Part shown: positions 6,789 through 42,523 of the stretch, one piece after another
Position numbering within the stretch: position 1 is the first letter of the stretch
How the letters are laid out: each line of letters starts with the position of its first letter
NCBI RefSeq assembly: GCF_050320075.1
Contig: NZ_CP190018.1
DNA length: 64,000 bases
Strand: one strand, 5' to 3'
DNA from: Escherichia coli
GTDB taxonomy: Bacteria; Pseudomonadota; Gammaproteobacteria; Enterobacterales; Enterobacteriaceae
The notes under the pieces: generated by a model
Seen by the model: the letters and a program-made list of their open reading frames with translations, nothing else
Told to the model about the DNA's origin: nothing
Databases searched by the model: none
Program-made: the position numbers and the translations under genes

Positions 6789-7162
6789 GATTTTTGGCAC
6801 GAGAGTAGTTTAATTGAGCCTGTAACTGTATGATTTTAAAGATGTAGATTAATTGAGTTTTGAAATCGTATATCCAAACGTATAACTAAAATGATTTGCT
6901 GCAAAAATGTACAGCTTTAACCGTTATCATTTTCCGGCTATTCGCTATGAAGCTGGCTGGTGGATAAGCACGGATAACCTGACATCTACAGCCGCCTTAA
7001 AAGCTGAACCCGACAAGCATATCGGCATCATGCCCACCAGCGTGACGCATTTTTTTAATTGCGCGGGCGTAAAAATTTGACGGGGCGGACAGTTCCATAA
7101 GTAATGGATTGCAGGAATTTCGCCCCCCCTCCTGAATGCAATTTTTCGTATATATATACAAA

Positions 7163-7290
7163 ACCACCCGTCCCACCTGTCCCGCCTGTCCCACTGGCAC
7201 CTAACAAATTGATTTTGTTAGAAATAAATTAGGTAAGGTAGGACAAGTCCAGGCTGTTTTGGGACAAGTTGGGGGGGAGGTGGGACAAGT
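7163..7290. repeat. Iteron block 1: three GTCCC units at ~10-bp spacing, 8-bp palindrome CTAACAAA-N5-TTTGTTAG, three GGGACAAGT units at ~21-bp spacing
   Basis: Read directly: TCCCACCTGTCCCGCCTGTCCCA at 7169-7194; palindrome at 7201-7221; G(G)GACAAGT at 7241, 7261, 7282. Confidence 0.6.
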
Positions 7291-7824
7291 CGAGCGAGTG
7301 AATCAAGCCGTGTTAGCGCGGTAAAGCGACAGTGCCGCCGCAATTTTGCGTTGTCGGGAGGCCACCGTAACAGCCACCATACGCGCACAATCTTCGGTGG
7401 TAACGCAATCCAGACGTGCGCAACATCCCCAGATAGGAAATCATTACCTAGCACAGCTAATTGCGCCAGAATCGATTACAGCGCGTTTCTGTGGCATTCA
7501 AGAACGGCTATCACTAGTGTATTGATATGTAATCCGCATATGAGTTTAAGCAACAAAATGATCCCCTTTCGAAAAAGGCACTAACCGTTTTTTCCGAAAT
7601 GATCCGTTGGTGATTTTGTAACTTATTGTTTTGTAGATGTAATTTTAAACTTGATAGGGTTATAAATAGGGGGCGTTTTTGTCAAGAATTGCAAATAATG
7701 CTCGTTTATTGTTCTTTGTTTGTTTGTTTTCTGTTCGTTGATGGGGGATCATTTTGCACTTTTTGGGGGATCATTTCGGAGGGGGGGGGCTGGCAACACG
7801 CCAGCACCCTCGATGCGTTTGTTT

Positions 7825-8034
7825 TTAGCAGTACTCCCAGTCTGTGGCTAGTAGGCTCTCAGGAGATAGCGTAACGCTATCCTCTGTGACGGGATTCAAC
7901 GCAATCAAATCGTTTCCGCGCCGTTCGAGAAAGACGATGTACGGAAGATGCCAGGCACTGCGGCGAGCTGGCACGCGTCGGCCTGGCTGCAACTTGTCGA
8001 GAATATCCACCAGCGAAACGTTCATGTGATTCAA
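7825..8034 (-). CDS. Hypothetical small protein (69 aa with TTG start; 66 aa from internal ATG)
   Basis: ORF with AGGAG about 5 nt upstream of the TTG; last gene of the ssb-finO-perC cluster; no recognisable family. Confidence 0.35.
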   Translation of the reverse strand: MNHMNVSLVDILDKLQPGRRVPARRSAWHLPYIVFLERRGNDLIALNPVTEDSVTLSPESLLATDWEYC

Positions 8035-8090
8035 AAAACTCCTGAAACGCTCTACAACTCAATAACACAAAAAATAATGCAGAACTGCCA

Positions 8091-8375
8091 CTATAAAACC
8101 TTGTCTGTCTGGTAGTTCCGCCAGACAGATTTTGCGATTTCTATCCCCATATCCGCCTGTGTGCGGTGTGCTGCCTCTCTCAAGCTCCCGAAATTATCCA
8201 GCATGACGGGCGAACGTGCTGCCTTGTGGATACATTTCGCGCGACGCTTTACTGCCTGTTCGCGCTCCTTATCGGTGTTCACCTGTTGCATGACCTCAGC
8301 CCATCGGGCCGCCGCTCTCCGGTACAGGCCTTTAGCCTCCAGATCTTCCGCTTTGCTGTCGTGAATCATACTCAT
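8091..8375 (-). CDS. PerC-family transcriptional activator-like protein (94 aa)
   Basis: Motif EDLEAKGLYRRAAARWAEV resembles the PerC family signature; start ATG overlaps stop of upstream gene (ATGA coupling). Confidence 0.5.
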   Translation of the reverse strand: MSMIHDSKAEDLEAKGLYRRAAARWAEVMQQVNTDKEREQAVKRRAKCIHKAARSPVMLDNFGSLREAAHRTQADMGIEIAKSVWRNYQTDKVL

Positions 8376-8908
8376 ACGCCAGCTTGCTCCTTGTTCGACT
8401 TACGTTTGCGCTTCTCTTTCAGTGCCATCAGTCGTGCTTCCGCGTCCTGCTGTTCCTGTTGTGTCACCTCGCCGCATGGCTGGCTATTCAGATCGTAACG
8501 CACGCCACCAGCCATTAAGGCACGGTAATAACGCGGAGAATGAGCATAAGATGCTAGCGCCGCACGTAATGCCCCTGACCCAAAAGCCAGCGCCCTGACG
8601 GCAATATCCTGTATCAGGTCTTCAAATATTCCTACCTTAAGCGGCTTCGGTGATTCCAGGCTGAATAATTCAGGCCATAGTTCAATAAGACGGTTAACGC
8701 GCCTGCGGTTTTTGCCCTGGCGTTTGGTCATATGCCGCCACGGTGTCGCCCCTGTGGGCTTCTGTTTGCGGCTCTGCTGTGCGTTCTGATTGCCGGGTAT
8801 CACTTTATGCGCTGATGTGGTTTTATCCTGCTGCTGTGTCGTCTGTGTCTTTTTCTGTGGTATGCCGTAAATGCCTTTCGGTTTTCTGCTAATAGTCAGT
8901 GTAGTCAT
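8372..8908 (-). CDS. ProQ/FinO-domain RNA-binding protein (178 aa) with basic low-complexity N-terminal extension
   Basis: C-terminal two thirds align by eye with E. coli ProQ N-terminal domain (PLKVGIFEDL..., LRAAL.SY..S.RY...GG.RYDL...PCGE). Confidence 0.6.
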   Translation of the reverse strand: MTTLTISRKPKGIYGIPQKKTQTTQQQDKTTSAHKVIPGNQNAQQSRKQKPTGATPWRHMTKRQGKNRRRVNRLIELWPELFSLESPKPLKVGIFEDLIQDIAVRALAFGSGALRAALASYAHSPRYYRALMAGGVRYDLNSQPCGEVTQQEQQDAEARLMALKEKRKRKSNKEQAGV

Positions 8909-8943
8909 TATTTGTTAACCTCTGTTAGTGAATCCACTGGCAG

Positions 8944-9369
8944 TTAAAATGGTATTTCGTCCTCATACGGGTCATCCTGCTGGCCCGTCTGCTGCTTTGT
9001 TCTGTTCAGTGCGTCAGTAGCCTGCCCTTGCTGTCCTTTCCTGCCTCCTGGTCGCACGGTTCGCGCACTGATTACGCTGCCTGCGATGACCTGCCAGCCC
9101 TGCCGCATTTCCCCGTTCTGGTCTGTCCACTGGCTTATCTGCATGTTACCCGCCACGCTCACCAGTTCGCCTTTCTGGTGTTTTGCCAGTGCATCGGCCT
9201 GTCTGCCAAACGCCAGGACGGATAACCACATCGTCGCTGTTCCGTCATATGCCTGACTGCACGGAAGGGGAACAGCCATACTCACCAGCGCCATTGGTGT
9301 TCCCTTGCTGGTGGTTTTTAACTGCGGGTCAGCCACCAACCGCCCGTAAGCTGATATTTGTGCCGTCAT
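8944..9369 (-). CDS. ssb: Single-stranded DNA-binding protein (SSB-like, 141 aa)
   Basis: OB-fold pattern similar to E. coli SSB (W..V.AFG, WTDQNG) and acidic C-terminal tail EDEIPF (cf. DDDIPF). Confidence 0.6.
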   Translation of the reverse strand: MTAQISAYGRLVADPQLKTTSKGTPMALVSMAVPLPCSQAYDGTATMWLSVLAFGRQADALAKHQKGELVSVAGNMQISQWTDQNGEMRQGWQVIAGSVISARTVRPGGRKGQQGQATDALNRTKQQTGQQDDPYEDEIPF

Positions 9370-9444
9370 ATTGTCTGCTCTCCGGTTTTAAATGTTGGTT
9401 GGATTTTTAATGTCCACCAGCCAGGCAAAAAATAACGCCTGCTG

Positions 9445-9580
9445 ACTTGTCCCAAAATGCTCCTAACTTGTCCCAAAATCACCTTAACTTGTCCCGCTCT
9501 TGTCCCACTTTTTCTGATATTACCCAATATAATTCAGTATGTTATGTGTGTTTCTCACAGGTTGGGACAGGTGGGACAAG
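9445..9580. repeat. Iteron block 2: four ACTTGTCCC units (~21-bp spacing) plus GGGACAGGTGGGACAAG; inverted copy of block 1
   Basis: ACTTGTCCC at 9445, 9466, 9487; TTGTCCC at 9500; GGGACAGGTGGGA at 9564-9576 is the exact reverse complement of TCCCACCTGTCCC in block 1. Confidence 0.6.
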
Positions 9581-9605
9581 AGTCTTTAAACCTACACGCG
9601 AGAGA

Positions 9606-11741
9606 TTAACCACCTTCATCATCATGATCCTGTGCAAGTAAAAGGCCGTACACCCTTAGTCGTGCCCCCTTCATGTGCTTAAGACGTGGTGTTCTGATTT
9701 GCCATCCTTCCCCGCTGGCTGGCTTTTTCAGCATTCCGGCTTCGTGAAGGGCTCTTGCTACGGCATCCTTGTTAAATCCCTTCGCCACATGCGATTTAAA
9801 TGGCTCCGGCAGGACGTAAAACAAAACAGGCTCACCGTAACGCCCCTCGCTTTCCCTGTAGCCGTACAGTTCTGAAATCGGCAGGCTTGCAGGGTCATAA
9901 TTGACAGGCGCAAACCTGCTCATGCCGTAGGCAGTAAGAAATGCCTCTGCCTGTTCAATAATCTGCCTGTGTTCCTTGTTACCCGTGCCGAACTCCTTCA
10001 CCCAGGCATTAAAGTTATGCTGAATGGCATCACAGCACGTCTGAACATTCCAGCCCGTAACATGACCGGACAGCACAAGCGCGGCCTCCAGTATGGCGAA
10101 TCGTTCCCCTACGCGATGAACCTGTTCGCCGTAGCTCTCCGGTATTAGGTTGCGCCACCGTTCACGGCACGCCCTTACCGTGTCCTTAGCCTCCTGCTGG
10201 TGGGCTGCCAGCCATTTAACCCATTCACGACCCGCCGCCCCGTGGTTTTCTGTCCAGGCGGCTTTTAACGCGTCTGCGTGCGCCTTTCCTGTGCTGTATT
10301 CGTGAAACTGCGTAGACTTCTCCATCGGCACGTTAAGCAACCTGACAAGCTGCCCCGCCTTGACTTTTATCCCCTCACTTTTGAGGAATGTTTCAACATC
10401 CATTTCTCCGGTACTGATCGCCACCGTGCGCCAGTGTTTTATCTCCCGGTTGCCGCCGTCCTTCGCCCCCTGTAATTTCCCGGAACCGTTAAACAGCGTA
10501 TAGGCTGACGTGGACACCTCCCGCGCGTTTCCGGCCTGGCCTATTTCATCCAGGGGTAACAGCCCGTCGTTGTGCGCCTCTGCCTCGTTAGCGATACCTA
10601 ACGCTGTGCCGTACCAGGTCAGCCGTTGCGCGTCCGGCTCTCCCCATAAACTTGATGCGATGTTCTGTGTGGTGGTTTTCCCTGCCGATGATTGTTCGAA
10701 AAGATGTACCCCGAAGCCGTCAGCGCCCACCAGCCCGATTAATGGTGCTGATAACGATACCGCCACACCCAGCATCATGGACGGATTACCACCAGCCAGT
10801 CGCGCCACTGTATCGCGCCAGCCCTCTGTCGTTCCTGCTACGGAATAACCATTAACGGCAGCCGTTTTTCCGGTAAACAGGATCGGTTTTTCAGACTCAC
10901 CAATGACTGAACCGTCCGGCATGATGTACGCGCCAAAATGCCACCCCGTTGTTGTGCTTAACTGCCATTCCTCATGGTTTCCGTTTAACTGCATCCAGTC
11001 AGCCAGGATAGCCCTGTATTTGCCGTTGGTTGTCACATTGAGTCCGTGGTCTTTCAGCAGCCGCCAGCCGTCACGGTCGCCAATGCCACCGCACGGGATC
11101 GCCATTGTGATGACTTCATGATTTGCTAATTTTTTCCAGCGCATCACGCGGTAATGCTCTTTACCGATCGTTCCCGTTCCCAGTAGTTCAAGCGGGGAAC
11201 ATAACCACGCCTCAGGCCGGATAATTTCGCCTGACTGTTTGTCAACTTTGGGCGTTACCCAGAAAACACCATCGGCGCGACTTTCAACGCGGGGTTTTAA
11301 TTCATCATCGCCCTGGCTTTCTGTGATTTTTTTCTTTAAGGGCAACACCAGACTTTCCCCGCGCTCGTATTCGTCTTTGAGGCGAGGCAACTGGTCGGAT
11401 AAATCCGCCGGGCTGGTGTCAGTTATCCCCGCATATTCGTATACGGTCTTCACGCCAGCCACAGCCAGCAATGTGACGATCTGTGTAAGGCTACGTTCAG
11501 TGATGTGCCCTGCGCGGTAAACACGCACACACTGACGGCTATCATCAATAATCTGATAACCGGTAATATCTTTCAGGTGTTCATCTGACAGAACGACAGG
11601 CGGCACATTGTCGGCGGCAATATGCTTACCTGCCCATTCCTGCCACTCTTTCGCATGGCTCCACGCATCACTACCCGCAAAAATGATAACCTCCGTCATT
11701 TTGTCGGCTGGCTGGTGCTTTAAGTTCGGTGCGCGTTTCAT
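9606..11741 (-). CDS. Replicative primase-helicase (TOPRIM-like N-terminus plus P-loop NTPase, 711 aa)
   Basis: Walker A-like SSAGKTT, large size, position downstream of int/alpA as in P4 alpha-type and PICI pri-rep genes; start overlaps upstream small ORF. Confidence 0.75.
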   Translation of the reverse strand: MKRAPNLKHQPADKMTEVIIFAGSDAWSHAKEWQEWAGKHIAADNVPPVVLSDEHLKDITGYQIIDDSRQCVRVYRAGHITERSLTQIVTLLAVAGVKTVYEYAGITDTSPADLSDQLPRLKDEYERGESLVLPLKKKITESQGDDELKPRVESRADGVFWVTPKVDKQSGEIIRPEAWLCSPLELLGTGTIGKEHYRVMRWKKLANHEVITMAIPCGGIGDRDGWRLLKDHGLNVTTNGKYRAILADWMQLNGNHEEWQLSTTTGWHFGAYIMPDGSVIGESEKPILFTGKTAAVNGYSVAGTTEGWRDTVARLAGGNPSMMLGVAVSLSAPLIGLVGADGFGVHLFEQSSAGKTTTQNIASSLWGEPDAQRLTWYGTALGIANEAEAHNDGLLPLDEIGQAGNAREVSTSAYTLFNGSGKLQGAKDGGNREIKHWRTVAISTGEMDVETFLKSEGIKVKAGQLVRLLNVPMEKSTQFHEYSTGKAHADALKAAWTENHGAAGREWVKWLAAHQQEAKDTVRACRERWRNLIPESYGEQVHRVGERFAILEAALVLSGHVTGWNVQTCCDAIQHNFNAWVKEFGTGNKEHRQIIEQAEAFLTAYGMSRFAPVNYDPASLPISELYGYRESEGRYGEPVLFYVLPEPFKSHVAKGFNKDAVARALHEAGMLKKPASGEGWQIRTPRLKHMKGARLRVYGLLLAQDHDDEGG

Positions 11742-12025
11742 TTCTTGCCCCCAGTAACCAGCATTTCGCGGATTTTGCGGATATATCTTGCTGCACGGTT
11801 CTGATTTACGGTTTCACGATGATCCACCAGCGTAAAATCACGCTGGAACTGATAAACAGGCATCACGCAGTCATATTCGTATCCTTCACGGCGGTAGGTC
11901 ATGCGTCGTTCACTCACGCCCTTAATCATTACCGTGCTGCCGTATTTATCGCGGTAAATATCGCCGTGCATGAATTCAGGACGAGTTTTACCGCTGGCAG
12001 TAAAGCCAGAATTTTTTGCTTTCAT
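11738..12025 (-). CDS. Hypothetical protein (95 aa), translationally coupled to primase-helicase
   Basis: ORF stop overlaps primase start codon; coding-like composition; no family recognised. Confidence 0.45.
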   Translation of the reverse strand: MKAKNSGFTASGKTRPEFMHGDIYRDKYGSTVMIKGVSERRMTYRREGYEYDCVMPVYQFQRDFTLVDHRETVNQNRAARYIRKIREMLVTGGKK

Positions 12026-12064
12026 TTATCGAATTACGTTTTTGTTAAAGCTGTATTAATGAGA

Positions 12065-12250
12065 TTAATGAACTGTCGCCACTTCAATTACGGCACGGAT
12101 CATCACCTGCGTGAACCCACAGCCGATTAACTCTTCTTTCAATATTGCGATAGCTGCATTAACGCTGGTGGCGTTCACGTTTTGCTGATTATCAATAACG
12201 TGGCCTTGATGATTTACAGCGCGTGCGGTTATCTGAAATCGCTTAAGCAT
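12065..12250 (-). CDS. Hypothetical small protein (61 aa)
   Basis: ORF preceded by GGGGTGAGG SD-like sequence; start overlaps stop of upstream small ORF. Confidence 0.4.
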   Translation of the reverse strand: MLKRFQITARAVNHQGHVIDNQQNVNATSVNAAIAILKEELIGCGFTQVMIRAVIEVATVH

Positions 12251-12431
12251 GCCTCACCCCCTGACGAATACGGGCAGCGAATACAGCAACACAGCCGGAC
12301 GGGCAACAGTTACGCGCTTCTCGTTCGGTTGATGCCTCGACGTGAACAATACGGGAATCAGTCGGATTAAAGATGACAAAGCGCCAGATAAATGTGTTTT
12401 GAGAATGTTCGAGGGTAGGGGTAGTAGCCAT
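12243..12431 (-). CDS. Small protein (62 aa), possibly Icd-like (host cell division inhibitor-like) as annotated in P4-like elements
   Basis: Strong SD AGGAGG 7 nt upstream of ATG; FIWRF and FAAR motifs recalled from Icd-like annotations (memory-based, uncertain). Confidence 0.45.
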   Translation of the reverse strand: MATTPTLEHSQNTFIWRFVIFNPTDSRIVHVEASTEREARNCCPSGCVAVFAARIRQGVRHA

Positions 12432-12640
12432 TTGGCAGCCTCCTGTAACGTTGGGATATACCCACCGCCGGAGGTGGTAAGCTCGATGGCGGTGGACTGT
12501 ACAGGGTTACCACAACTGGTGTTACAGGAAACCAGCCTGACCGAAGTCAGCCCCATACAGCCCACCATTGATAAGGCGTGCGCGTGCGCCGATACAAAAA
12601 AAGACGCCTGGCGCGTCTGTATCGCCTGTAACTCCAGCGG
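12432..12640 (-). ncRNA. Candidate structured regulatory RNA / leader (P4 immunity-like seqA-seqB-seqC arrangement)
   Basis: On the minus strand: GTTACAGG (12632-12625), intrinsic terminator, UUCG-tetraloop hairpin (12550-12537), complementary CCTGTAAC (12528-12521), then GTTACAGGAGG (12449-12439) overlapping the SD of the first ORF. Confidence 0.3.
12595..12618 (-). terminator. Intrinsic terminator inside the leader region (AGACGC-loop-GCGTCT followed by T7 on minus strand)
   Basis: 6-bp GC-rich stem, 5-nt loop, run of seven T on the transcribed strand. Confidence 0.5.
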
Positions 12641-13077
12641 GGTGGTAATCCCGACACCCGTTTTATGAGGTGCGCAGGGAGTATATCCCGTTTTCTTGCT
12701 CATGTGGTCGGATGTGTTGAAGGTGTGCCCACCACACAAATCACATTGCTCACCAGCCGGAAATATGGCATTGTTGGCGATGCATTCAAGTTTAATATAT
12801 GCCTTCTGGCGACCCTCTGCGGTCGCCTTTGTTTTATTCGTAAGCAACATATTTCTTTTGTCGTTTAAGCTATGCGATTGTACGTTTCCGTTTAAAACGG
12901 AAGTGCTATTAGTTCAATTAATTCGTTCGTACGGTTTGAACTGAATAATAACATCAGCCATAATTTTTTATGGTTGAACGAAAACCTGCCCCTGTTTGGG
13001 CATTTTTGCCAGTATTCATAATGTTCTCTCTTAATTGTTTTGTTGCTTGATAGTAATCAGGCCAGCGTTAATCACAC

Positions 13078-13269
13078 TTATGCTTCACGAGTTTCTCTCT
13101 CACGTTCTTTCAACCAGGCGAGTACCTCATCTTCATACCAGCCAATGCGACGCAGCCCGATACGGAATCCTTTGGGGAACCCGCCTTTGTTAACCATCTC
13201 CGTTAGGGTCGAATCAGATTTAATGCGTAGCAAGGCCTTTACCTCTGGTCGTAAAAGAATAGCCCTCAT
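13078..13269 (-). CDS. alpA: AlpA-family phage transcriptional regulator / excisionase-like (63 aa)
   Basis: Small HTH protein with LLR..EV......S.ST......G.FP....IG.R.IGW...EV..WL pattern; position between integrase and replication genes. Confidence 0.7.
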   Translation of the reverse strand: MRAILLRPEVKALLRIKSDSTLTEMVNKGGFPKGFRIGLRRIGWYEDEVLAWLKERERETREA

Positions 13270-13474
13270 CCTATTTCTCCTCTGGACAGCAAAATATCGC
13301 TTTTTGAATGAAAATAACGGTAAGTAATGTAATAAGCATACAAATCTATAAAAAAGACAGTCAAGAATTATTTAATAAGAGCTATGTGATTGGTTATTTT
13401 TTAATTTTCTAACATAAAAAGAATTTAAATGTTTCTCAAAATGAGACAGTATTGAGAAAGTAATGAGACACAAA

Positions 13475-13506
13475 TTAGCTCCTAACTGATACCAATTAGG
13501 AGCTAA
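13475..13506. promoter_or_regulatory. Perfect 11-bp inverted repeat TTAGCTCCTAA-N10-TTAGGAGCTAA in the AT-rich int-alpA intergenic region
   Basis: Read directly; lies just downstream of int stop and upstream of alpA promoter region; could be int terminator and/or operator. Confidence 0.35.
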
Positions 13507-13522
13507 TAATTTTTTAAATATT

Positions 13523-14767
13523 TTATTTTATTCCGCGTAATCCTCTGTGCCCGCTGGCGATGGTTGTTCCGGTTGCGGCTGCTTCCACAAAATCACCCCA
13601 CCAGCACATTAACACTTTACGTTTTTCCAGGTAGTTGCTTCGGTTGTATGCCCGTCTAACTTCGTTTGTGTCCACGTGGGCTAGTGCGGCTTCGATCACG
13701 TCAGGTTCAAATCCTTCTTCATTCGCCGCCGTGCTGAATATTGCGCGTAGTCCGTGAGATACCAGCACACCAGCGTAACCCATTCGTCGTAATGCTGCGT
13801 TTGCTGTCTGGCTGCTCATTGATTGCACTGGATTTTTAAGACTTGGGAAAACATGCTCCCTTCGTGCGCTAATCGGCTTCATGGCTTCAAGCACTGCCAT
13901 CGCCTGAGCGCAAAGGGGGATCACATGATCACGGCGCATCTTCATGCGTCCGGCTGGTATCGTCCAGGTTGCCGCCTCAAGGTTGATTTCTTCCCACCGT
14001 GCGGCGGAGGCTTCGGCTGGGCGGGTTGCGGTTAACAACTGCCACTCAATCAGCAATCTGGTTTGCCGTTCTATGCTGGCGATCGATAAATCGTGCATTA
14101 GCTGCGGTAGTTGTTCCGGTCGGATGGTTGGCATGTGCTTTTTGGTGGGGGAAGGGAATGCCTTGCGAACGTTCGCGGCGGTGTTGATGTCAATCAGTCC
14201 ACTGTTGGCAGCAAAATCCATCACTTCATTGATGCGCTGTAAAACGCGTTTCAGTGTTTCCAGGTTGCCACGTGCCTTGATGGGCGTGAGTATCTCAACA
14301 AAGCGGCGAGCGGTGAGAGTATCTATCGGTGTGTTTCCGATATACGGGAATACATATTTCTCTAGCGAGCGCCAGATGTCCTTGATCGTATTGTGGGCGA
14401 GATTCTGGTTTTTTTTCATTTCGTACCACAATGCGGCCACATTTTCGAACGTGTTGCCCTGTCGTCGAGCCTCTGCTTCGAGTTTTTGCCGTTCGTATTC
14501 CTGCGGGTCGGTTCCTGCCGCAATTAACGTCCTGTACTCGCTACGGCGTTTTCTGGCATCAGCCAGGGAGACTTCATCAAGCGAGCCCAAACTAATGATT
14601 GTTCGTTTTTTGTTCGATGGTCGATAGTAGTTGAATCGCCATAGTTTCGAACCAGACGGCTTAATAACGAGAAAAAGCCCGCCGCCATCCTGTAAGGTGT
14701 ATTCTTTTTCCGCTGGTTTAGCTGCTTTGATCTGTGTGGTGGTGAGTGGGGTCGCCTTTCTTGCCAT
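13523..14767 (-). CDS. int: Tyrosine site-specific integrase, P4-type (414 aa)
   Basis: N-terminal arm-binding-like domain (LTTTQIKAAKP...GGGLFLVIKPSGSKLWRF), C-terminal catalytic region with HGLRA and terminal tyrosine region; adjacent to tRNA gene. Confidence 0.85.
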   Translation of the reverse strand: MARKATPLTTTQIKAAKPAEKEYTLQDGGGLFLVIKPSGSKLWRFNYYRPSNKKRTIISLGSLDEVSLADARKRRSEYRTLIAAGTDPQEYERQKLEAEARRQGNTFENVAALWYEMKKNQNLAHNTIKDIWRSLEKYVFPYIGNTPIDTLTARRFVEILTPIKARGNLETLKRVLQRINEVMDFAANSGLIDINTAANVRKAFPSPTKKHMPTIRPEQLPQLMHDLSIASIERQTRLLIEWQLLTATRPAEASAARWEEINLEAATWTIPAGRMKMRRDHVIPLCAQAMAVLEAMKPISARREHVFPSLKNPVQSMSSQTANAALRRMGYAGVLVSHGLRAIFSTAANEEGFEPDVIEAALAHVDTNEVRRAYNRSNYLEKRKVLMCWWGDFVEAAATGTTIASGHRGLRGIK

Positions 14768-14973
14768 ACGTTTATGAATCCACGGGAAAAAACAGGTTCT
14801 AGTTATACGGATTTAGCTATGCGCCAGCCCGTATAACTAAACATATAACTAAAAAAAACGGCTGAAAACCACTGTTACCGTCGAATAACGATGACTAAAA
14901 ACAATAAAAAAACCCGCTATTCAATGAATTAGCGGGCTTATTTCATAAAAACGATAATTAATAATGGGCGATT

Positions 14974-15050
14974 TGGTCGGCACGAGAGGATTTGAACCTC
15001 CGACCCCCGACACCCCATGACGGTGCGCTACCAGGCTGCGCTACGTGCCG
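14974..15050 (-). tRNA. proL: tRNA-Pro (anticodon GGG), 77 nt with encoded CCA
   Basis: Reverse complement reads CGGCACGTAGCGCAGCCTGGTAGCGCACCGTCATGGGGTGTCGGGGGTCGGAGGTTCAAATCCTCTCGTGCCGACCA; cloverleaf with GGG in anticodon loop. Confidence 0.9.
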
Positions 15051-15124
15051 ACTCGTGGCTGTTAATACTACCGTTTTCCACACCGATTGCAAGTAAGATA
15101 TTTTGCTAACTGATTTATAATTAA

Positions 15125-16885
15125 TCAGTTAGCGATAAAACGCTTCTCGTCTGTCAGTACTTGCAATAACAAACTTAACTGTGGTTTTTCATCTTTCACT
15201 CTTTCACCACGTAAGTTGTAAGTACGGTATTTACCGTTATTGTTCAGCACCAGCGTCTTTTTCGGGGTGGTAATTGCCAGCGTATCGTTATCCGCGGCGG
15301 TAACCCAGTAATGACGGCGTTGAGAGTTGAACAAATCCTGACCTTGCGAATATTCGCTGGCAGGTGTGCTGACATGTAGCAGGCGTTGCATCAGCGTCGT
15401 CATCAGATCGGTATGATCAGTCAGAGCATTAATACGCTGCGCCGGCGTACCTGGCCAGTGAATCACTAATGGCACCTGCAGATGACCGTGGGACCAGTCA
15501 AAGGTTTCTTCCTCTTCGCTCAGCGGAATACCCCGACCGGCAGTGATAATCACCACCGTATTGTCCAGTTTGCCAGAATCACGTAGTGCATTGAGCACGC
15601 GGTTGATCTGGTCATCGACATTGCTTGCCGCCCGGCTATATTTCCGTGCAAATGCCTGCTGATTGCTGTCGTCAATGTTAGTGCCATTGAAAGAAACCCA
15701 CGAGAACCAGCGGTTATCTTCTTGTGCGTAGCGGCCCAGCCAGTTGATCCACTGCGTGGCGGTCTGCTCGTCGGATTGGGTGCGTACGCTCGGCATCGAG
15801 AAATCTGACAACAATGCCTGGCGATACAGCGGGCTGGTAAAGCCATCTGACGAGAATAACCCCAGCTGATAGCCTTGCTGATTAAGCGCAGTAATTAACG
15901 CCGCAGGCGTACGGGTCGACAGAATGCCGTCCATATAGCTCGGCGAGATGCCATAGAACAGGCCAAAGATGCCGTTGTCTGTAGTGTTGCCGGAGCTCAT
16001 ATGGCGCGTGAACGAAATATTTTGCTCAGCAAAACCTGCCAGCGCAGGCATCTGCTTCTCGAAGCGTGAGTAGTTCAGGCCATCGACAGTAATCAACAAG
16101 ACATTCTGCCCGGTGCCCATATCGCGATAGCGCAGTTCGCTTAACGGATACTGAACGGAAACGGCGTCTGGATTACCTTGCTCAATGAGACGGCGTTGAT
16201 ACTCCTGCGCATCAAGCAGACCATGCTTCTCAAGAAAACGTCGCGCCGTCATCGGGTACGAAAGCGGTAGGTTAGCGCGCTGCATGGTGATCGGGCGATA
16301 GAAGTTGGCATCGGCCCAGATATACACCACATGCGAGGCGATAAAGGCGATAAATAAGAATGCGGCCAGCGGGCGCGCGAAGCGCCGACGACGCGTCAGG
16401 CTGCGTAGCTTTTGCCAGCTCCACGTCGCAAACACCAGTTCAAGCAATAAAATAACCGGCACGCTGATGAACATCAGCTGCCAGTCGCGCGCCATCTCAT
16501 TTTCGTCTGGGTTGATAACCAGTTGCCAGACGATGGGATTAAGATGGAGATGGAAACGAGTAAAGACTTCGCTATCGATCAGTAATAGCGTCATTCCCGC
16601 CGTTGCCAGAATGACGGACAAAAACCTCATCAGCCTCTGGGAGCCGACGATAAAGGTCAGCGGGAAGAGGATCAGCAAGTAGGTGGCGAACACCAGGAAG
16701 CTGAAATGGCCGATAATGCTTACGTAGGAATAAATGCGACCAGCAAGCGTTGTCGGCCAGTCGGCGATAAACAGGTAACGGCTGCCAATGACGAGCGAAA
16801 GCAGAATATTGAACAGTGCAAACCAGTGCCCCCAACTGACCATCTGGGAGACTTTTTCACGGTAGCGCTGACGATGAGTTACCAT
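15125..16885 (-). CDS. yejM: Inner membrane protein YejM/PbgA (sulfatase-like periplasmic domain, 586 aa)
   Basis: N-terminal five TM helices plus large C-terminal domain; position next to proL. Confidence 0.8.
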   Translation of the reverse strand: MVTHRQRYREKVSQMVSWGHWFALFNILLSLVIGSRYLFIADWPTTLAGRIYSYVSIIGHFSFLVFATYLLILFPLTFIVGSQRLMRFLSVILATAGMTLLLIDSEVFTRFHLHLNPIVWQLVINPDENEMARDWQLMFISVPVILLLELVFATWSWQKLRSLTRRRRFARPLAAFLFIAFIASHVVYIWADANFYRPITMQRANLPLSYPMTARRFLEKHGLLDAQEYQRRLIEQGNPDAVSVQYPLSELRYRDMGTGQNVLLITVDGLNYSRFEKQMPALAGFAEQNISFTRHMSSGNTTDNGIFGLFYGISPSYMDGILSTRTPAALITALNQQGYQLGLFSSDGFTSPLYRQALLSDFSMPSVRTQSDEQTATQWINWLGRYAQEDNRWFSWVSFNGTNIDDSNQQAFARKYSRAASNVDDQINRVLNALRDSGKLDNTVVIITAGRGIPLSEEEETFDWSHGHLQVPLVIHWPGTPAQRINALTDHTDLMTTLMQRLLHVSTPASEYSQGQDLFNSQRRHYWVTAADNDTLAITTPKKTLVLNNNGKYRTYNLRGERVKDEKPQLSLLLQVLTDEKRFIAN

Positions 16886-16904
16886 AACCTGTTATCTGTT
16901 TCCC

Positions 16905-17132
16905 TTAGTGCGCTTTGTCTTCGTTGATAGAGGACTGTAAGGCGCGGGCAAAAGAGTTGGCAATTGCCTGGCGTTGGGCCGGGGCAATGCTGGTGTTGAT
17001 AAGGTTAGTGACCATGTTGCCTAACACCATCAGGGAAAGGTCGGTCGGAGCCTTATGTTTTTCCAGTACGTTGAGCAGCTCTGCGAGCAATTGTTCAACC
17101 TGTTCATCACTGTAGCGGGAAATTTGTGGCAT
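16905..17132 (-). CDS. yejL: UPF0352 small protein YejL (75 aa)
   Basis: Conserved small ORF in synteny between yejM and yejK. Confidence 0.7.
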
Positions 17133-17313
17133 AAATCGAAATCAGTTAGTTGATGAAAGGGCAACATATTACCGTAGCAACGGTTTTTTTTCTGCTTTTT
17201 TATGCGTTAAATCATTCTCGTTACGCCGCCTTCTGTAAAATGACCGCCATCTTTTATTGCGTCGCTTAACCGGCGGTGGTTGAATACCGCCCGGTCTTAA
17301 AGGAGAGTTTATC

Positions 17314-18321
17314 ATGAGTCTGGATATCAACCAGATTGCTCTGCACCAGCTTATCAAGCGTGATGAGCAGAACCTTGAGCTGGTGTTGCGCGATTCATTG
17401 CTGGAACCGACAGAAACCGTCGTTGAGATGGTGGCAGAACTGCATCGGGTCTATAGCGCCAAAAATAAAGCTTACGGCTTGTTTAGCGAAGAGAGTGAAC
17501 TGGCGCAGACACTGCGCTTACAGCGTCAGGGCGAAGAGGACTTTCTGGCATTTAGCCGCGCGGCAACCGGTCGCCTGCGTGACGAATTAGCGAAATATCC
17601 TTTTGCTGACGGTGGATTCGTGCTGTTTTGCCACTATCGCTATCTGGCGGTGGAGTATCTGCTGGTGGCAGTTCTGAGCAACCTGAGCAGTATGCGTGTT
17701 AACGAAAATCTCGACATCAACCCAACCCATTATCTTGATATCAATCATGCGGATATTGTTGCGCGTATCGATTTAACCGAGTGGGAAACCAATCCAGAGT
17801 CGACCCGCTATCTCACTTTCCTGAAAGGGCGAGTAGGGCGCAAAGTGGCGGATTTCTTTATGGATTTCCTCGGGGCCAGCGAAGGGTTAAACGCGAAAGC
17901 GCAAAACCGTGGGCTGTTGCAAGCGGTTGATGATTTCACTGCCGAAGCACAACTGGATAAAGCAGAGCGACAGAACGTGCGCCAGCAGGTTTATAGCTAC
18001 TGTAATGAGCAGCTGCAGGCAGGCGAAGAGATTGAACTGGAATCGCTGTCGAAAGAGCTGGCAGGCGTCAGCGAAGTGAGCTTCACGGAGTTTGCGGCTG
18101 AAAAAGGCTACGAACTGGAAGAGAGCTTCCCGGCAGACCGTAGCACACTGCGTCAGTTGACGAAGTTTGCCGGTAGCGGCGGTGGCTTGACTATTAACTT
18201 TGATGCGATGCTGTTAGGTGAACGCATCTTCTGGGATCCAGCAACCGATACCCTGACCATTAAAGGCACGCCGCCGAATTTGCGCGATCAATTGCAGCGC
18301 CGGACGTCTGGCGGCAATTAA
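17314..18321 (+). CDS. yejK: Nucleoid-associated protein YejK (NdpA), 335 aa
   Basis: Begins [19 protein letters not shown]; synteny. Confidence 0.8.
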
Positions 18322-18415
18322 TCGGTTTTGTGTTCTGAATGCCAGATGCGGCGTGAACGCCTTATCTGGCCTGCAAAAAATAGCAATACCGTAATCAGGC
18401 ATATTCTGCAGATAC

Positions 18416-18443
18416 AAAAAACCCCGCCGGAGCGGGGTTTTTT
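18416..18443. terminator. Bidirectional intrinsic terminator between yejK and rplY (CCCCGC-CGGA-GCGGGG with flanking A/T runs)
   Basis: Read directly at AAAAAACCCCGCCGGAGCGGGGTTTTTT; a REP-like palindrome lies just upstream (about 18336-18372). Confidence 0.6.
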
Positions 18444-18459
18444 ACAACTTATTCAGCAA

Positions 18460-18852
<393 letters not shown>

Positions 18853-18868
18853 TCAATCAAAACTACCA

Positions 18869-20629
18869 TTAACCGCGTAATTCGTGCGCCCGACGAAAAC
18901 GACCTTCGTAATCGAACACTTTTTCACGCACTTGCCAGTACTGACCTTTCATGCGGGCGACGACAAAATCCGGGTGTCGCAGTAATGCTTGCTGGGCGAG
19001 GATATCAGCGGCGGTGATCCAGCGCAGAGGGATGCCCGGTGTGCGCGTATGCGGGCGGATAAAAAGCTGCTCGAAGGCGGTACGCTGAGCGGGCGTTTGC
19101 AGACGGAAACGCTCACTCACATCCGCGCCGTCTTCATCGTAATAGGTGATTTTCAACCATTCGCCTTTCTCGTCGTGCCCATGCTGCAAAGACATGCCGC
19201 TACAGCGTAATACCAGCGCGTCTTTCAGTCGTAGCGCCGCTTTTAACATATCATCCGGATCAACCAGTACGGTGTCACATTCGCGGCAGCGGCGGGCGGC
19301 AATATCGTTTTCCGCGTTACATTGCGGGCAATTTTTAAAACGGAAACGGAAATCACACTGTTCTCGATGACCGTCGTCATCTTCAAACCATCCCTGACAG
19401 CGGCGACCAAAGTGTTCAATCAATGTCCCGTCGGCGGTCGTTTTCCCCCAAAAGGTGTTGGCAAAACCGCAGGCAGGGCAGAAAACCTGTACCGGAACGT
19501 TGTCACTTTTGCCTTTCGGTGTACCAACTTCCGGCGCGTAGAGATCGTGAGGGTTACCCGCATAATCAAGAATTAAGCAATCAGTCTTGCCTGGAGCGAG
19601 ACGCAGACCGCGCCCGACAATTTGTTGGTAAAGACTCACCGATTCGGTAGGGCGCAGAATAGCAATAAGATCGACGTGCGGGGCGTCAAATCCAGTGGTC
19701 AGTACCGCGACGTTGACCAGATAGCGAAAACGCTGGGCTTTAAAATCTTCAATTAACACATCGCGCTCAGCGCCGGGTGTGTCGCCAGTAATCAGTGCTG
19801 CATCTTCGGCAGGCAGCAGTCCCACTATCTCCTTGGCGTGTTCAACGGTGGCGGCGAAAATCATCACTCCTTTACGCTTTTCGGCGAACTCCATAATCTG
19901 GCTGATGATGTGCGGGGTAATACGTTGCTGTTTTTTCAGCTCGCGGTTGAGATCGGCTTCGCTGAAAAGCCCGTTACTCTGTGCCTGCAAGCGGCTGAAA
20001 TCGTATTGCACTACTGGCATATCCAGTCGTTCTGGCGGCGTCAGATAGCCGTGTTTAATCATATAACGCAGCGGCAGCTCATAAATGCAGTCACGGAAAA
20101 GGGCTTTCTCATCGCCGCGTACCATGCCGTGATAATGGAACTGGTAGATCCAGCCTTTGCCCAATCGAAAAGGCGTGGCAGTCAGCCCCAGCAGGCGTAA
20201 GTGGGGATTCACTTTTGTCAGGTGAGTGAGGATTTGCTGATACTGGCTCTCTTCATCGTCACCAATACGGTGACATTCATCGACAATCAACAGCGAAAAT
20301 TCACCCTGAAAGGCATCAAGATTACGGGCGACCGACTGCACGCTGCCAAATACCACTTTACCGTGGCTCTCTTTGCGCTTTAGCCCGGCGGCAAAAATAT
20401 CGGCTTCCAGCCCCAGCGCCTGATATTTTGCATGGTTTTGCGCCACCAGTTCTTTAACGTGTGCCAGCACCAGCACGCGACCACGCGCCAGCCGCGCCAG
20501 TTCCGCTATCACCAGGCTTTTACCTGCACCGGTGGGCAGCACGATAACGGCAGGGGTTTTATGACGACGAAAATGGTTGAGCGTGGCATCCACGGCTTCT
20601 TGCTGATATGGGCGGAGTGTAAAAATCAT
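18869..20629 (-). CDS. radD: ATP-dependent DNA helicase RadD (YejH), superfamily 2, 586 aa
   Basis: Walker A PTGAGKS, DECH box, C-terminal zinc-finger-like Cys cluster. Confidence 0.8.
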
Positions 20630-20778
20630 GGTCTCGCGTAGGTAGATTATTCTGCTAATAGTATGCCACGGATCTTTTTCCCTTGAGGGAAGTTATTAGA
20701 CCGCTATACTGGGCAGACAACAGTTCAGATTTTCGGGTCATTACCCGACCTCCGTTTTTTACAGGCAAAATCACACAC

Positions 20779-21474
20779 ATGCGACTTGATAAATTTATCG
20801 CACAGCAACTCGGCGTTAGCCGTGCTATTGCCGGGCGTGAAATCCGCGGCAATCGTGTCACCGTCGATGGCGAAATCGTCCGTAATGCAGCGTTCAAACT
20901 GCTCCCTGAACATGATGTCGCTTACGATGGCAACCCGCTGGCGCAGCAACACGGTCCACGTTACTTCATGCTCAATAAACCTCAGGGCTATGTTTGCTCC
21001 ACGGACGACCCGGATCACCCAACGGTGCTCTATTTTCTTGATGAACCGGTAGCGTGGAAACTGCACGCTGCAGGGCGTCTGGATATCGATACCACCGGTC
21101 TGGTACTAATGACAGATGATGGTCAGTGGTCGCACCGCATTACTTCTCCGCGCCATCATTGCGAGAAGACCTATCTGGTGACGCTGGAATCACCCGTAGC
21201 TGACGATACGGCAGAGCAATTTGCTAAAGGCGTGCAGCTGCATAACGAAAAAGATCTCACTAAGCCGGCGGTGCTGGAAGTGATTACCCCAACGCAGGTT
21301 CGTTTGACCATCAGCGAAGGGCGTTATCATCAGGTGAAACGTATGTTCGCCGCCGTGGGTAACCATGTGGTTGAGCTGCATCGTGAACGTATTGGCGGCA
21401 TTACGCTGGATGCTGATTTAGCTCCCGGTGAATATCGTCCGTTAACTGAAGAAGAAATTGCCAGCGTCGTCTAA
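20779..21474 (+). CDS. rsuA: 16S rRNA pseudouridine(516) synthase RsuA (231 aa)
   Basis: Begins [15 protein letters not shown] (S4 domain) followed by pseudouridine synthase catalytic region; longer six-frame ORF is an alternative-start extension. Confidence 0.8.
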
Positions 21475-21501
21475 CTTTTCAATGACTTTCAGGAGCCCGT
21501 T

Positions 21502-22692
21502 GTGACCACCCGACAGCATTCGTCGTTTGCTATTGTTTTTATCCTTGGCCTGCTGGCCATGTTGATGCCGCTGTCGATTGATATGTATCTGCCCGCGCTA
21601 CCGGTAATTTCAGCGCAGTTTGGCGTACCGGCAGGCAGTACGCAGATGACCCTCAGTACTTATATTCTGGGCTTTGCGTTGGGGCAGTTAATCTACGGGC
21701 CGATGGCAGACAGCTTCGGGCGTAAGCCGGTGGTTCTTGGCGGTACGCTGGTGTTTGCCGCCGCCGCGGTGGCGTGTGCGTTGGCAAACACCATCGATCA
21801 GCTGATTGTGATGCGTTTCTTCCACGGGCTGGCTGCGGCTGCGGCCAGCGTGGTCATTAATGCCCTGATGCGCGATATTTACCCGAAAGAAGAGTTCTCG
21901 CGGATGATGTCGTTTGTCATGCTGGTGACCACTATTGCACCGTTGATGGCACCGATTGTCGGCGGTTGGGTGCTGGTGTGGCTGAGCTGGCATTACATCT
22001 TCTGGATCCTGGCATTAGCGGCGATTCTGGCTTCGGCAATGATTTTCTTCCTGATTAAAGAAACGTTGCCGCCAGAGCGTCGTCAGCCATTTCACATTCG
22101 TACCACTATTGGTAACTTTGCGGCGCTGTTCCGTCATAAGCGTGTCCTGAGTTATATGCTTGCCAGTGGTTTCAGCTTTGCCGGGATGTTCTCGTTCTTA
22201 AGCGCCGGACCGTTTGTCTACATTGAAATTAACCACGTCGCGCCGGAAAACTTTGGTTATTACTTTGCGCTAAACATTGTTTTCCTGTTCGTGATGACTA
22301 TCTTTAACAGCCGCTTCGTCCGCCGAATTGGCGCGTTAAATATGTTCCGCTCGGGGTTGTGGATACAGTTTATTATGGCGGCGTGGATGGTCATCAGTGC
22401 GCTGCTGGGGCTGGGATTCTGGTCGCTGGTGGTTGGCGTTGCGGCGTTTGTGGGCTGCGTGTCGATGGTGTCATCTAATGCGATGGCGGTCATTCTTGAT
22501 GAGTTTCCCCATATGGCGGGAACGGCATCTTCGCTGGCAGGAACCTTCCGTTTCGGCATAGGGGCAATTGTTGGCGCATTACTTTCTCTTGCGACCTTTA
22601 ACTCTGCATGGCCGATGATTTGGTCAATTGCATTCTGCGCAACCAGCTCCATTCTCTTCTGTCTGTACGCCAGTCGGCCGAAAAAACGGTGA
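21502..22692 (+). CDS. bcr: MFS efflux transporter Bcr (bicyclomycin/multidrug), 396 aa, GTG start
   Basis: 12-TM MFS protein beginning [20 protein letters not shown]; GTG start 9 bp after AGGAG. Confidence 0.8.
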
Positions 22693-41810: not shown

Positions 41811-42086
41811 GTGGCTTCTGTTTCTATCAGCTGTCCCTCCTGTTCAGCTACTGACGGGGTGGTGCGTAACGGCAAAAGCACCGCCGGACATCAGCGCTAT
41901 CTCTGCTCTCACTGCCGTAAAACATGGCAACTGCAGTTCACTTACACCGCTTCTCAACCCGGTACGCACCAGAAAATCATTGATATGGCCATGAATGGCG
42001 TTGGATGCCGGGCAACTGCCCGCATTATGGGCGTTGGCCTCAACACGATTTTCCGCCATTTAAAAAACTCAGGCCGCAGTCGGTAA
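41811..42086 (+). CDS. insA: IS1 InsA (91 aa)
   Basis: [43 protein letters not shown]... zinc-finger/HTH protein of IS1. Confidence 0.9.
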
Positions 42087-42508
42087 CCTCGCGCATACAG
42101 CCGGGCAGTGACGTCATCGTCTGCGCGGAAATGGACGAACAGTGGGGATACGTCGGGGCTAAATCGCGCCAGCGCTGGCTGTTTTACGCGTATGACAGGC
42201 TCCGGAAGACGGTTGTTGCGCACGTATTCGGTGAACGCACTATGGCGACGCTGGGGCGTCTTATGAGCCTGCTGTCACCCTTTGACGTGGTGATATGGAT
42301 GACGGATGGCTGGCCGCTGTATGAATCCCGCCTGAAGGGAAAGCTGCACGTAATCAGCAAGCGATATACGCAGCGAATTGAGCGGCATAACCTGAATCTG
42401 AGGCAGCACCTGGCACGGCTGGGACGGAAGTCGCTGTCGTTCTCAAAATCGGTGGAGCTGCATGACAAAGTCATCGGGCATTATCTGAACATAAAACACT
42501 ATCAATAA
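42005..42508 (+). CDS. insB: IS1 InsB reading frame (expressed as InsAB' transposase by -1 frameshift)
   Basis: Frame contains [22 protein letters not shown]...[13 protein letters not shown] typical of IS1 InsB; listed start is the open-frame boundary, not a true initiation codon. Confidence 0.8.
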
Positions 42509-42523
42509 GTTGGAGTCATTACC

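Follow-up and report, generated by a model that had tools for sequence, protein, structure and literature searches.

Among the described phage-inducible chromosomal islands (PICIs) of Gram-negative bacteria, EcCICFT073, the prototype, carries, in this order, int, alpA, an icd-like gene, small open reading frames (ORFs), and genes for a DUF4222 protein, a replication protein, SSB and PerC, with late genes next; its origins are of the iteron type, and it depends on a cos site and on the helper terminase (PMC6092414, PMC6739421). Islands that have only int, alpA and a primase gene are the "Type C" PICIs of SatelliteFinder; thousands of such reduced PICI-like islands have been reported, and they are usually put aside as possibly defective (PMC10085698). 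For one reduced Type C PICI, EcCIMP1, experiments have demonstrated induction and transduction by its helper (PMC11773190). Here we analyse an island located at the tRNA-Pro gene proL of Escherichia coli, in a stretch of 64,000 nucleotides (the window hereafter) from contig NZ_CP190018.1 of assembly GCF_050320075.1. By its gene content and DNA sites, the island is a Gram-negative PICI-type phage satellite that keeps only the early half of the family gene set.

Satellites of other hosts offer precedents for such a reduced element. SaPIbov5-type cos-carrying Staphylococcus aureus pathogenicity islands (SaPIs) reportedly have no terS, carry the cos site of the helper and are packaged by an HNH-dependent phage terminase. 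They differ from the proL island in their Gram-positive host, in the Stl repressor and, for SaPIbov5, in capsid remodelling by Ccm, and sequence kinship is confined to the fold family of the Rep helicase. For the PICMIs (phage-inducible chromosomal minimalist islands) of Vibrionaceae, a reduced gene content, no capsid-remodelling genes and DNA packaged as a concatemer are described; the likeness is one of concept, and the host family and the virulent helper phages are different (PMC10803314).

On balance, and with some reserve, we regard the proL island as a working PICI-type satellite, in which a replication operon repressed by a C4 RNA would be switched on through AlpA, replication would start at iterons, and the DNA would be packaged by the HNH-TerS-TerL machinery of a helper at a borrowed cos site.

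The proL island and its family

The island occupies window positions 6796-14988, with every gene on the minus strand and a unit length of 8,183 bp. Its ends were fixed by alignment with the empty yejO-proL-yejM site and by a 10-bp direct repeat, GGCACGAGAG, which bounds the island as the attR core (6796-6805) and the attL core (14979-14988). The latter lies within proL, a tRNA-Pro(GGG) gene predicted by ARAGORN (14974-15050, minus strand), the 3' end of which is rebuilt by the island. G+C content drops to 0.37-0.42 at each island end. At least 80% of the island is held by 52 of 5,426 complete E. coli genomes, and empty yejO-proL-yejM sites with joined flanks were seen in other genomes; the island is therefore accessory and not part of the core genome. 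A preliminary description, made from the letters of the sequence alone, had recognized a compact satellite-like integrative element here and had proposed a BLASTN comparison in search of empty junctions; both the element, with its ORFs and repeat-bounded ends, and the empty junctions proved to be real. An identical (100%) sequence is present in E. coli YZLc1-3 (NZ_CP123240), where RefSeq annotates an integrase, an HTH regulator, a partial "ash family" pseudogene, and Icd-like, hypothetical, DUF4222, DUF927, SSB, ProQ/FinO and PerC proteins. The copy in strain 042 has 95-97% nucleotide identity to the window copy, and all its genes are intact.

The gene adjoining the 3' end of proL encodes a P4-type tyrosine integrase (13523-14767, minus strand), as had been predicted: it matches NCBIfam PRK09692 over its full length (552 bits), is 34% identical to P4 Int, and shows the motifs ATRPAE, HGLR and RRAYNRSNY in its translation. 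Next to it lies the gene for an AlpA/Vis-type regulator and excisionase (13078-13269, minus strand; Pfam Phage_AlpA, 6.6e-6; PHROG 66), 39% identical to P4 ORF88/Vis. The replication initiator-helicase gene rep (9606-11741, minus strand) is discussed below with the origins. Between the window and strain 042 copies dN/dS, the ratio of nonsynonymous to synonymous divergence, is 0.11 for int and 0.17 for rep, and both genes are under purifying selection.

Of the features by which Gram-negative PICIs were defined (PMC6092414), the island has the att site, the origin, codirectional int, alpA and primase-replication genes, and a lack of phage structural or lysis genes, in any frame, over 8,183 bp; for helper-dependent induction, specific packaging and high-frequency transfer, the cos homologue and a metagenomic attP contig (both described below) are indirect signs. 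Moreover, the yejM-proL site is listed for six reference PICIs (Table S1, PMC6092414), and PerC, encoded here as well, is described as common in Gram-negative PICIs (PMC11773190). Three of the five SatelliteFinder core components are present (integrase, regulator and primase-replicase), capsid and terS/Rpp being missing, whereas Types A and B have at least four; by this component count, which is not SatelliteFinder output, the island would be a Type C PICI. The view that its gene set fits neither the P4-like nor the PICI definition, expressed in the preliminary description, was thus overturned by the PICI backbone, the att site, the PICI origin and the type of tRNA damage at attR.

Comparison with individual PICIs supports the same placement. 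The island has the gene order of EcCICFT073 (PMC6092414, PMC6739421), and identities between the two are 40-67% for Icd (53%), DUF4222 (67%), the N-terminus of Rep, SSB (66%) and PerC (60%). The two elements differ in their att sites, their integrases are only 25% identical, and their Rep proteins have helicase parts of different families, that of the island being DUF927; EcCICFT073 has, in addition, a capsid homologue, a head-decoration gene, RppA and a lambda-type cos used with an Rpp-TerS complex, none of which is present in the island. The reference PICI EcCI11368.1 (8.5 kb) has the same att site and junctions, the same arm repeats, the same 4-bp damage at attR, an integrase gene of 79% nucleotide identity and a homologous C4/icd/DUF4222 region; however, it encodes a RepA-type helicase, TerS and a major capsid protein, and is without the phiP27-like cos, the FinO-like gene and PerC. 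EcCIMP1, likened to the island by its description only, combines int and AlpA with an Ash/RNA region, a primase and PerC and has, as in the island, no identifiable capsid or terminase genes; it differs in its size (20 kb), its tRNA-Thr site and its helper, the temperate phage vB_EcoP_Kapi1 (PMC11773190).

Several traits are held in common with P4: the integrase family, Vis/AlpA, a replication-operon leader with CI/C4 antisense-RNA immunity, and carriage of a helper's cos. In terms of P4-like satellites, for which SatelliteFinder lists seven core components (PMC10085698), the integrase, the AlpA-type regulator and the Ash/CI RNA region are present, whereas psu, delta, sid, alpha, epsilon and a P2-type cos are not. 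That the island is a P4-like satellite of P2-type helpers, from which sid, delta and psu have been lost, is nevertheless very improbable. The protein identities of Int (34%) and Vis/AlpA (39%), the 69% nucleotide identity of the CI RNA region to that of P4 and the "ash family" annotation speak for it, but homologues of alpha, epsilon, sid, delta, psu, gop, beta and cII are lacking, the P2/P4 cos 19-mer was not found in the island even with three mismatches allowed, the gene order is that of PICIs and not of P4, and the cos is of the phiP27 type and not of the P2 type.

The cos-like block and the origins

A cos-like site (7032-7165, core GACGGGGCGGACAGTTCC at 7079-7096) was identified near the left end of the island by its homology to the cos of phage phiP27. 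In a comparison with 50,697 phage records (2.3 Gb), phiP27 was the sole match of this block, at the annotated cos-site (80.7% identity over 81 nt, E 2e-9). The island 10-mer CGGGGCGGAC is the counterpart of the annotated phiP27 cos CGGGGCGGGC, and the predicted 10-nt cohesive end of the island is GTCCGCCCCG; that of the related phage SfI, TGCCCGCCCC, has been determined experimentally (PMC3636060). In phiP27 and in the Br_190 and UTI89 prophages the homologous segment lies between an HNH endonuclease gene and a P27-family terS, downstream of which are genes for TerL, portal, HK97 protease and capsid. The core is unique within the window, and the block is conserved at 75-100% in islands of 268 genomes. 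Its carriers (e.g., the islands L005, L006 and L012 of our set) differ in their iterons, replication proteins and cargo, and the edges of the block are sharp. The genome NZ_CP123240 contains a second cos-like match. Sequence resembling the phiP27 HNH-cos-terS segment occurs in 2,339 of the 5,426 E. coli genomes, mostly at 60-90% identity, while at least 80% of the segment is covered in only 18 of them.

Other interpretations of this end of the island were rejected. A lambda-type cos, suggested by the motif ACGGGGCGG, was dropped, as BLAST searches with lambda cosQ-N-B and with the rebuilt cos1 and cos2 of EcCICFT073 gave no match in the island. Nor is the block 7032-7165 a known RNA, as no Rfam match at E<=1 and no consensus promoter were found in it. 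The 1 kb from orf69 to attR holds no convincing gene: the plus-strand ORF 6907-7080 and the other ORFs within 6806-7825 have no family match and were treated as non-coding, because the reading frame is not kept between islands while the DNA is. Positions 6913-6960 (plus strand) read FNRYHFPAIRYEAG, a stretch in common with L005 that shows mostly third-position changes; the frame is lost downstream, and the stretch may be a short peptide, the remnant of a gene or a DNA site.

The replication protein encoded by rep matches Pfam DUF927 and the PHROG "DNA primase" family (1.8e-165), and Walker A (SSAGKTT) and Walker B (LLPLDE) motifs are visible in its sequence. Among PDB structures it is related to 8TCH, a "pathogenicity island protein" of a SaPI (1e-14), and to 5DGK, the helicase Cch of SCCmec. 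The N-terminal 160 residues are 38-40% identical to the primases of L005 and EcCICFT073, whereas the helicase parts differ; a single-sequence AlphaFold model of residues 1-180 had a pLDDT (predicted local distance difference test score) of 38. The gene had been described as a TOPRIM/P-loop primase-helicase, of which the primase-helicase part was upheld by these matches and the TOPRIM part was not, as Pfam gave DUF927 only and no Toprim domain even at E<=10. In a comparison of 9606-11741 with the strain 042 copy (12571-14709 of locus L010), the synonymous divergence dS of rep was 0.39, against at most 0.12 for neighbouring genes, an excess that indicates mosaic exchange of the replication module.

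Two putative origins were recognized. The first, ori1 (9440-9585), lies directly 3' of rep and consists of two GTCCCA repeats, an AT-rich spacer and four GGGACAAG repeats. The second, ori2 (7169-7291), stands beside the cos block; in it, three GTCCC(A/G)C repeats and a palindrome-bearing AT-rich spacer are followed by three GGGACAAGT repeats at 21-bp spacing. In each cluster GTCCC-type repeats are thus followed by an AT-rich spacer and then by an inverted GGGACAAG set. All six GGACAAGT octamers of the window fall in the island, against 1.28 expected by chance, and are arranged as two triplets with an exact 21-bp spacing. The layout described by Fillol-Salom et al. as common to all PICIs, an AT-rich region that lies 3' of the initiator gene and is flanked by two sets of iterons (PMC6092414), is that of ori1. 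In L005 and L006 the ori2 architecture is likewise found next to cos, with a different iteron, GCGGGTTA. The Rep of L006 is 78% identical to that of the window, and both clusters of L006 use GCGGGTTA, so that the two origin sites co-vary with the initiator. The ori and crr of P4, two separated iteron clusters, are analogous to ori1 and ori2.

An own initiator and own origins would also suit a helper-independent integrative replicon, or an integrative mobilisable element, that excises and replicates by itself and moves by conjugative mobilisation or transformation. The SSB and FinO-domain genes, which recall genes of plasmid leading regions and of fertility control, point the same way, and P4 itself can persist as a plasmid. 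We nevertheless consider this account improbable: PHROG, NCBIfam and Pfam scans of the island revealed no relaxase, oriT-like feature or coupling protein, a homologue of a phage cos is present, and the backbone is that of PICIs proven to be mobilised by phages.

The absence of late genes was examined by tblastn against all six frames of the island. The queries were RppA, capsid and decoration proteins of EcCICFT073, the capsid-protease fusion and DUF1441 proteins of L005, TerS and capsid of EcCI11368.1, HNH, TerS and TerL of phiP27, and all P4 proteins. No capsid, terminase, HNH, Rpp, DUF1441, Sid, Delta, Psu, epsilon or alpha homologue was found, the sole matches being P4 Int, Vis and the cI region; for P4 psu, delta and sid no match was obtained at E<=0.1. 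The presence of an Rpp was rejected after searches with CFT073 RppA (144 aa, winged helix) and the L005 DUF1441 protein were negative, and PDB searches with orf69 and PerC returned no relevant match. The gene set of capsid-forming PICIs (cfPICIs) is lacking too, with no capsid, portal, protease, head-tail connectors, HNH, terS or terL, where portal, protease and connectors were covered by PHROG scans of the island ORFs and not by separate queries. The preliminary description of a replication module without structural or packaging genes was accordingly confirmed. Its further statement that helper-hijacking features are missing stands for genes and fails for DNA sites, since a cos site homologous to that of phiP27 is present. 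Four non-coding parts had escaped that description: the cos site, the two iteron origins, the IsrK/C4 antisense-RNA switch and the integrase arm repeats.

The lack of late genes could also mean that the island is a defective PICI remnant, which has lost its late module (capsid, terS/rpp) and is inherited vertically as an immobile fossil, its cos and origins being relics. Besides the missing genes, this account draws on the count of three SatelliteFinder components out of five with the caution of its authors about Type C (PMC10085698), on the presence of terS and a capsid gene in reference PICIs at the same site, and on the existence of clearly decayed copies. We hold it to be unlikely, if a good deal less so than the two alternatives discussed above. 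All ORFs are intact, with int and rep under purifying selection across copies that differ by 3-5%; tblastn revealed no late-gene pseudogene traces even at E<=10; the cos block has been kept, with sharp edges, across islands with differing iterons, replication proteins and cargo; and the Type C PICI EcCIMP1 is functional (PMC11773190). The attachment sites bear on the same question.

Attachment sites, leader RNAs and the proposed cycle

At attR (6790-6806), the displaced 3' fragment of the tRNA-Pro gene lacks 4 bp (GGTC) of the acceptor stem in comparison with the empty site. The same 4-bp gap is present in PK8277 (L011) and in the reference PICI EcCI11368.1 (L014), and strain 042 (L010) has a 3-bp variant; the fragment is thus short by 3-4 bp in every carrier examined. 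The damaged fragment was first read as decay and could be cited in favour of a defective remnant, but this reading was dropped, as the pattern is PICI-specific for tRNA-Pro and typical of PICIs as a class. In attR fragments derived from tRNA genes for Pro, Thr and Sec, Mageeney et al. described deletions of variable extent that start at a fixed position of the acceptor stem, which in their data set occurred in PICIs only and never in prophages, and suggested that excision leaves a crippled tRNA gene and so acts like an addiction mechanism (PMC10111431). Here, excision via the 8-10-bp common core would leave proL truncated.

The predicted attP, formed by joining the right end to the left end, has 17 bp, TTTGGTCGGCACGAGAG, in common with attB. 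Two tandem CGTATAACTAAA-type repeats (6867-6890, plus strand) in the P' arm, presumed to be arm-binding sites of the integrase, and four such repeats in the P arm (14798-14853), two inverted and two direct, were located by motif matches; six of the eight CGTATAACTAAA-like sites of the 64-kb window fall within the two island ends. The motif CGTATAACTAAA was listed by Fillol-Salom et al. as the "att site core" of yejM-site PICIs (Table S1, PMC6092414); these repeats are most likely integrase arm sites.

A scan of contigs for the predicted attP junction returned a single metagenome contig (L020; ERZ1034969 NODE_11656, 2,136 bp). It links the int 5' end and the P arm, via an intact 17-bp core, to the left end of the island with cos, ori2 and orf69, and matches the predicted attP at 213 of 223 positions. 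A relative of the island therefore excises or forms tandems: the contig is evidence that a close relative occurs in nature as a circle, a concatemer or a tandem, and not evidence of packaging. The finding of this junction argues against an immobile remnant. Among IMG/VR viral contigs the predicted attP had no match, and two cos-bearing IMG/VR contigs were rejected as evidence for packaging, both being related islands.

Downstream of alpA lies one leftward operon, which extends from a leader through icd, orf61 and the DUF4222 gene to rep and probably includes ssb, the finO-like gene, perC and orf69 as well; stop and start codons overlap at several places, the DUF4222 stop and the rep start by 4 nt. 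The leader encodes two RNAs on the minus strand, an IsrK-like RNA with a terminator (12597-12673; Rfam RF01394, 61.6 bits, gathering score 50) and a C4/CI-type antisense RNA (12485-12572; RF01695, 78.7 bits, gathering score 45), the region of the latter having 69% nucleotide identity to the P4 cI region. Two segments of the C4 RNA are unpaired, nt 44-52 (UCCUGUAAC) and nt 60-66 (GUGGUAA). In a complementarity search each of them had two perfect complements, one within IsrK (12648-12642 and 12632-12625, minus strand) and one just upstream of icd (12441-12480, minus strand; TTACCAC at 12480-12474 and GTTACAGGA at 12449-12441, the latter overlapping the icd Shine-Dalgarno sequence). The Icd-like protein itself is encoded at 12243-12431 (minus strand; NF033153, 59.6 bits, cut-off 25).

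The order a1/b1 - c4 - a2/b2 - icd is that of the immI operon of P1 and P7, and seqA - CI - seqC follows the same logic in P4. The island leader has this arrangement, with a C4 RNA and target pairs upstream and over the icd ribosome-binding site, as read from sequence alone. The C4 and isrK profiles have already been stated to match Gram-negative PICIs (PMC10111431), so that this part of our analysis is confirmation and not discovery. A 198-aa ORF (12254-12850) and the PGAP "ash family" pseudogene (12482-12850) overlie both RNAs; the PHROG matches of the ORF are confined to residues over the RNAs, and the historical P4 "cI" ORF matches at the same place. The "ash family" annotation therefore probably reflects conserved RNA genes rather than a protein.

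The proposed cycle can be outlined as follows. The island sits in the 3' end of proL, where its P4-type integrase inserted it, with arm repeats flanking an 8-10-bp crossover region. In the resting state, by analogy with P1/P7 immI and P4, the processed C4 RNA would stop translation of, and read-through into, the replication operon. A helper in lytic growth may turn on AlpA, as suggested by EcCICFT073 and EcCIMP1, leading to excision and operon expression. The initiator-helicase, assisted by SSB, could then fire from ori1 and ori2 and generate concatemers, as the anatomy of the replication module suggests. The terminase of the helper itself, made up of HNH, TerS (P27 family) and TerL, would cut at the phiP27/SfV-type cos of the island, and a helper head of full size (about 37-43 kb) would be filled by about five units of 8,183 bp (40.9 kb), the genome of phiP27 being 42.6 kb. 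No packaging or capsid-remodelling protein of the satellite would be needed, a strategy like that of SaPIbov5 and, for concatemer packaging, of the PICMIs.

Several points weigh against a working satellite of this kind. The dependence on a helper, the induction, the cleavage at cos and the transfer are predictions. The island cos 10-mer has one mismatch to that of phiP27 and its flanks are about 80% identical, which leaves recognition by any given helper unproven. The metagenome contig could stem from a tandem integrated array instead of a circle or concatemer. No interference gene was found (no Rpp, no capsid homologue), so the element may merely hitch-hike. The authors of SatelliteFinder warn that Type C elements may be defective (PMC10085698), and many copies at the locus, for example in Shigella-like genomes and in PK8277, are remnants ridden with insertion sequences (IS). 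Taken together with the evidence above, the island is probably still mobilisable.

Cargo slot, relatives and significance

The remaining proteins, all encoded on the minus strand, include an SSB (8944-9369; TIGR00621, 61 bits, cut-off 53.95), a FinO/ProQ-domain RNA-binding protein (8372-8908; NCBIfam FinO and ProQ models; PDB relatives ProQ 5NB9 at 1e-13, FinO 1DVO and RocC), a PerC-family regulator (8091-8375; Pfam PF06069, 3.2e-32), a DUF4222 protein (11738-12025; phrog_285, 5.8e-27) and two conserved small ORFs, orf61 (12065-12250; phrog_3672) and orf69 (7825-8034; phrog_7206, 1.2e-6). The latter has no Pfam, PDB or PADLOC match, and a variant with one residue changed is indexed in 474 blocks of the assembly collection. 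The assignments of alpA, SSB, the ProQ/FinO-domain protein, PerC and a terminal small ORF in the preliminary description agree with the Pfam, NCBIfam and PDB matches. The profile search of the small ORFs that it had proposed gave families for alpA, icd and DUF4222, and for orf61 and orf69 only phrog_3672 and phrog_7206, families to which no function is assigned. The FinO-domain protein, PerC and orf69 may be passengers with a regulatory or accessory role.

The small ORFs had also been regarded as likely defence cargo, an expectation that did not hold: PADLOC-DB 2.0.0 gave no matches for ten island proteins, and alpA, icd, phrog_3672, DUF4222 and phrog_7206 are conserved backbone genes. The unassigned "ash" ORF, likewise a candidate for cargo, overlies the two RNA genes. 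The actual cargo slot, between perC/orf69 and cos, is empty in this island and filled in its relatives. Positions 7292-7824 (about 530 bp, from ori2 to orf69), the place of cargo in relatives, contain no ORF with a family match, no Rfam match and no consensus promoter or terminator.

In a close relative, L006 (NZ_CP051738, strain SCU-105), the part between perC and cos (14222-21883) encodes three large hypothetical proteins (843, 686 and 918 aa) and small ORFs; PADLOC had no match for the three-gene cargo, which may be an undescribed cargo or defence system. In GCA_038017215 (L024, 2036-7829), an MmeI-like restriction-modification enzyme, a DEAD/ResIII helicase and a T5orf172 protein are found beside the same backbone, and in NZ_CP073589 (L013, 7454-12623) a DUF4747 protein and several hypothetical proteins. 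The element in NZ_CP049201 (L012, 6600-14096) is a PICI in which the same cos-like block is combined with genes for a RepA helicase, capsid, decoration and TerS; it abuts P2-like baseplate and tail genes and may be a helper-embedded satellite. Among the genomes found via orf69 (loci L021, L022, L025 and L028), many keep just finO-perC-orf69-attR at the locus, the rest of the island being replaced by IS elements, a group II intron and a gtrA/glycosyltransferase cluster; these loci are decayed derivatives of the island family. Elsewhere in the window (41811-43391), an IS1B element stands beside a 5'-truncated rihB pseudogene, as annotated by RefSeq in the identical record.

The family of the element is a known one, for which most of its features were already on record, and the new part is modest. 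What is new is the identification of a phiP27-type cos, its fixed pairing with a second origin, and the total lack of late genes in an apparently maintained lineage. In addition, the leader cleanly illustrates how RNA genes can be mis-annotated as an "ash family" pseudogene. To our knowledge, the satellites so far described as exploiting HNH-terminase phages in Proteobacteria are the capsid-forming PICIs. As a tentative extension, towards which we remain more sceptical than confident, the island might hijack HNH-terminase phages (of the phiP27/SfV/HK97 type) without any protein of its own, through cos and the second origin, as roughly pentameric concatemers in full-size heads, with the FinO-domain protein serving as a dedicated chaperone of IsrK/C4 and PerC acting on helper or host transcription. 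If protein-free hijacking of this kind were true, SaPIbov5 and the PICMIs would have their enterobacterial counterpart in the island.

The cos-plus-ori2 block is common to islands in hundreds of E. coli genomes and forms the downstream border of a cargo slot, which in relatives is occupied by large unknown gene sets. Should the block be functional, helper-satellite pairs could be found by matching cos sites to prophages with HNH and P27-type terS genes, and the island would provide an 8.2-kb chassis with an empty cargo slot for phage-mediated DNA delivery. The example shows how an island without late genes can be complete, as the hijacking function may reside in a non-coding site of about 130 bp that is invisible to gene-based classifiers.

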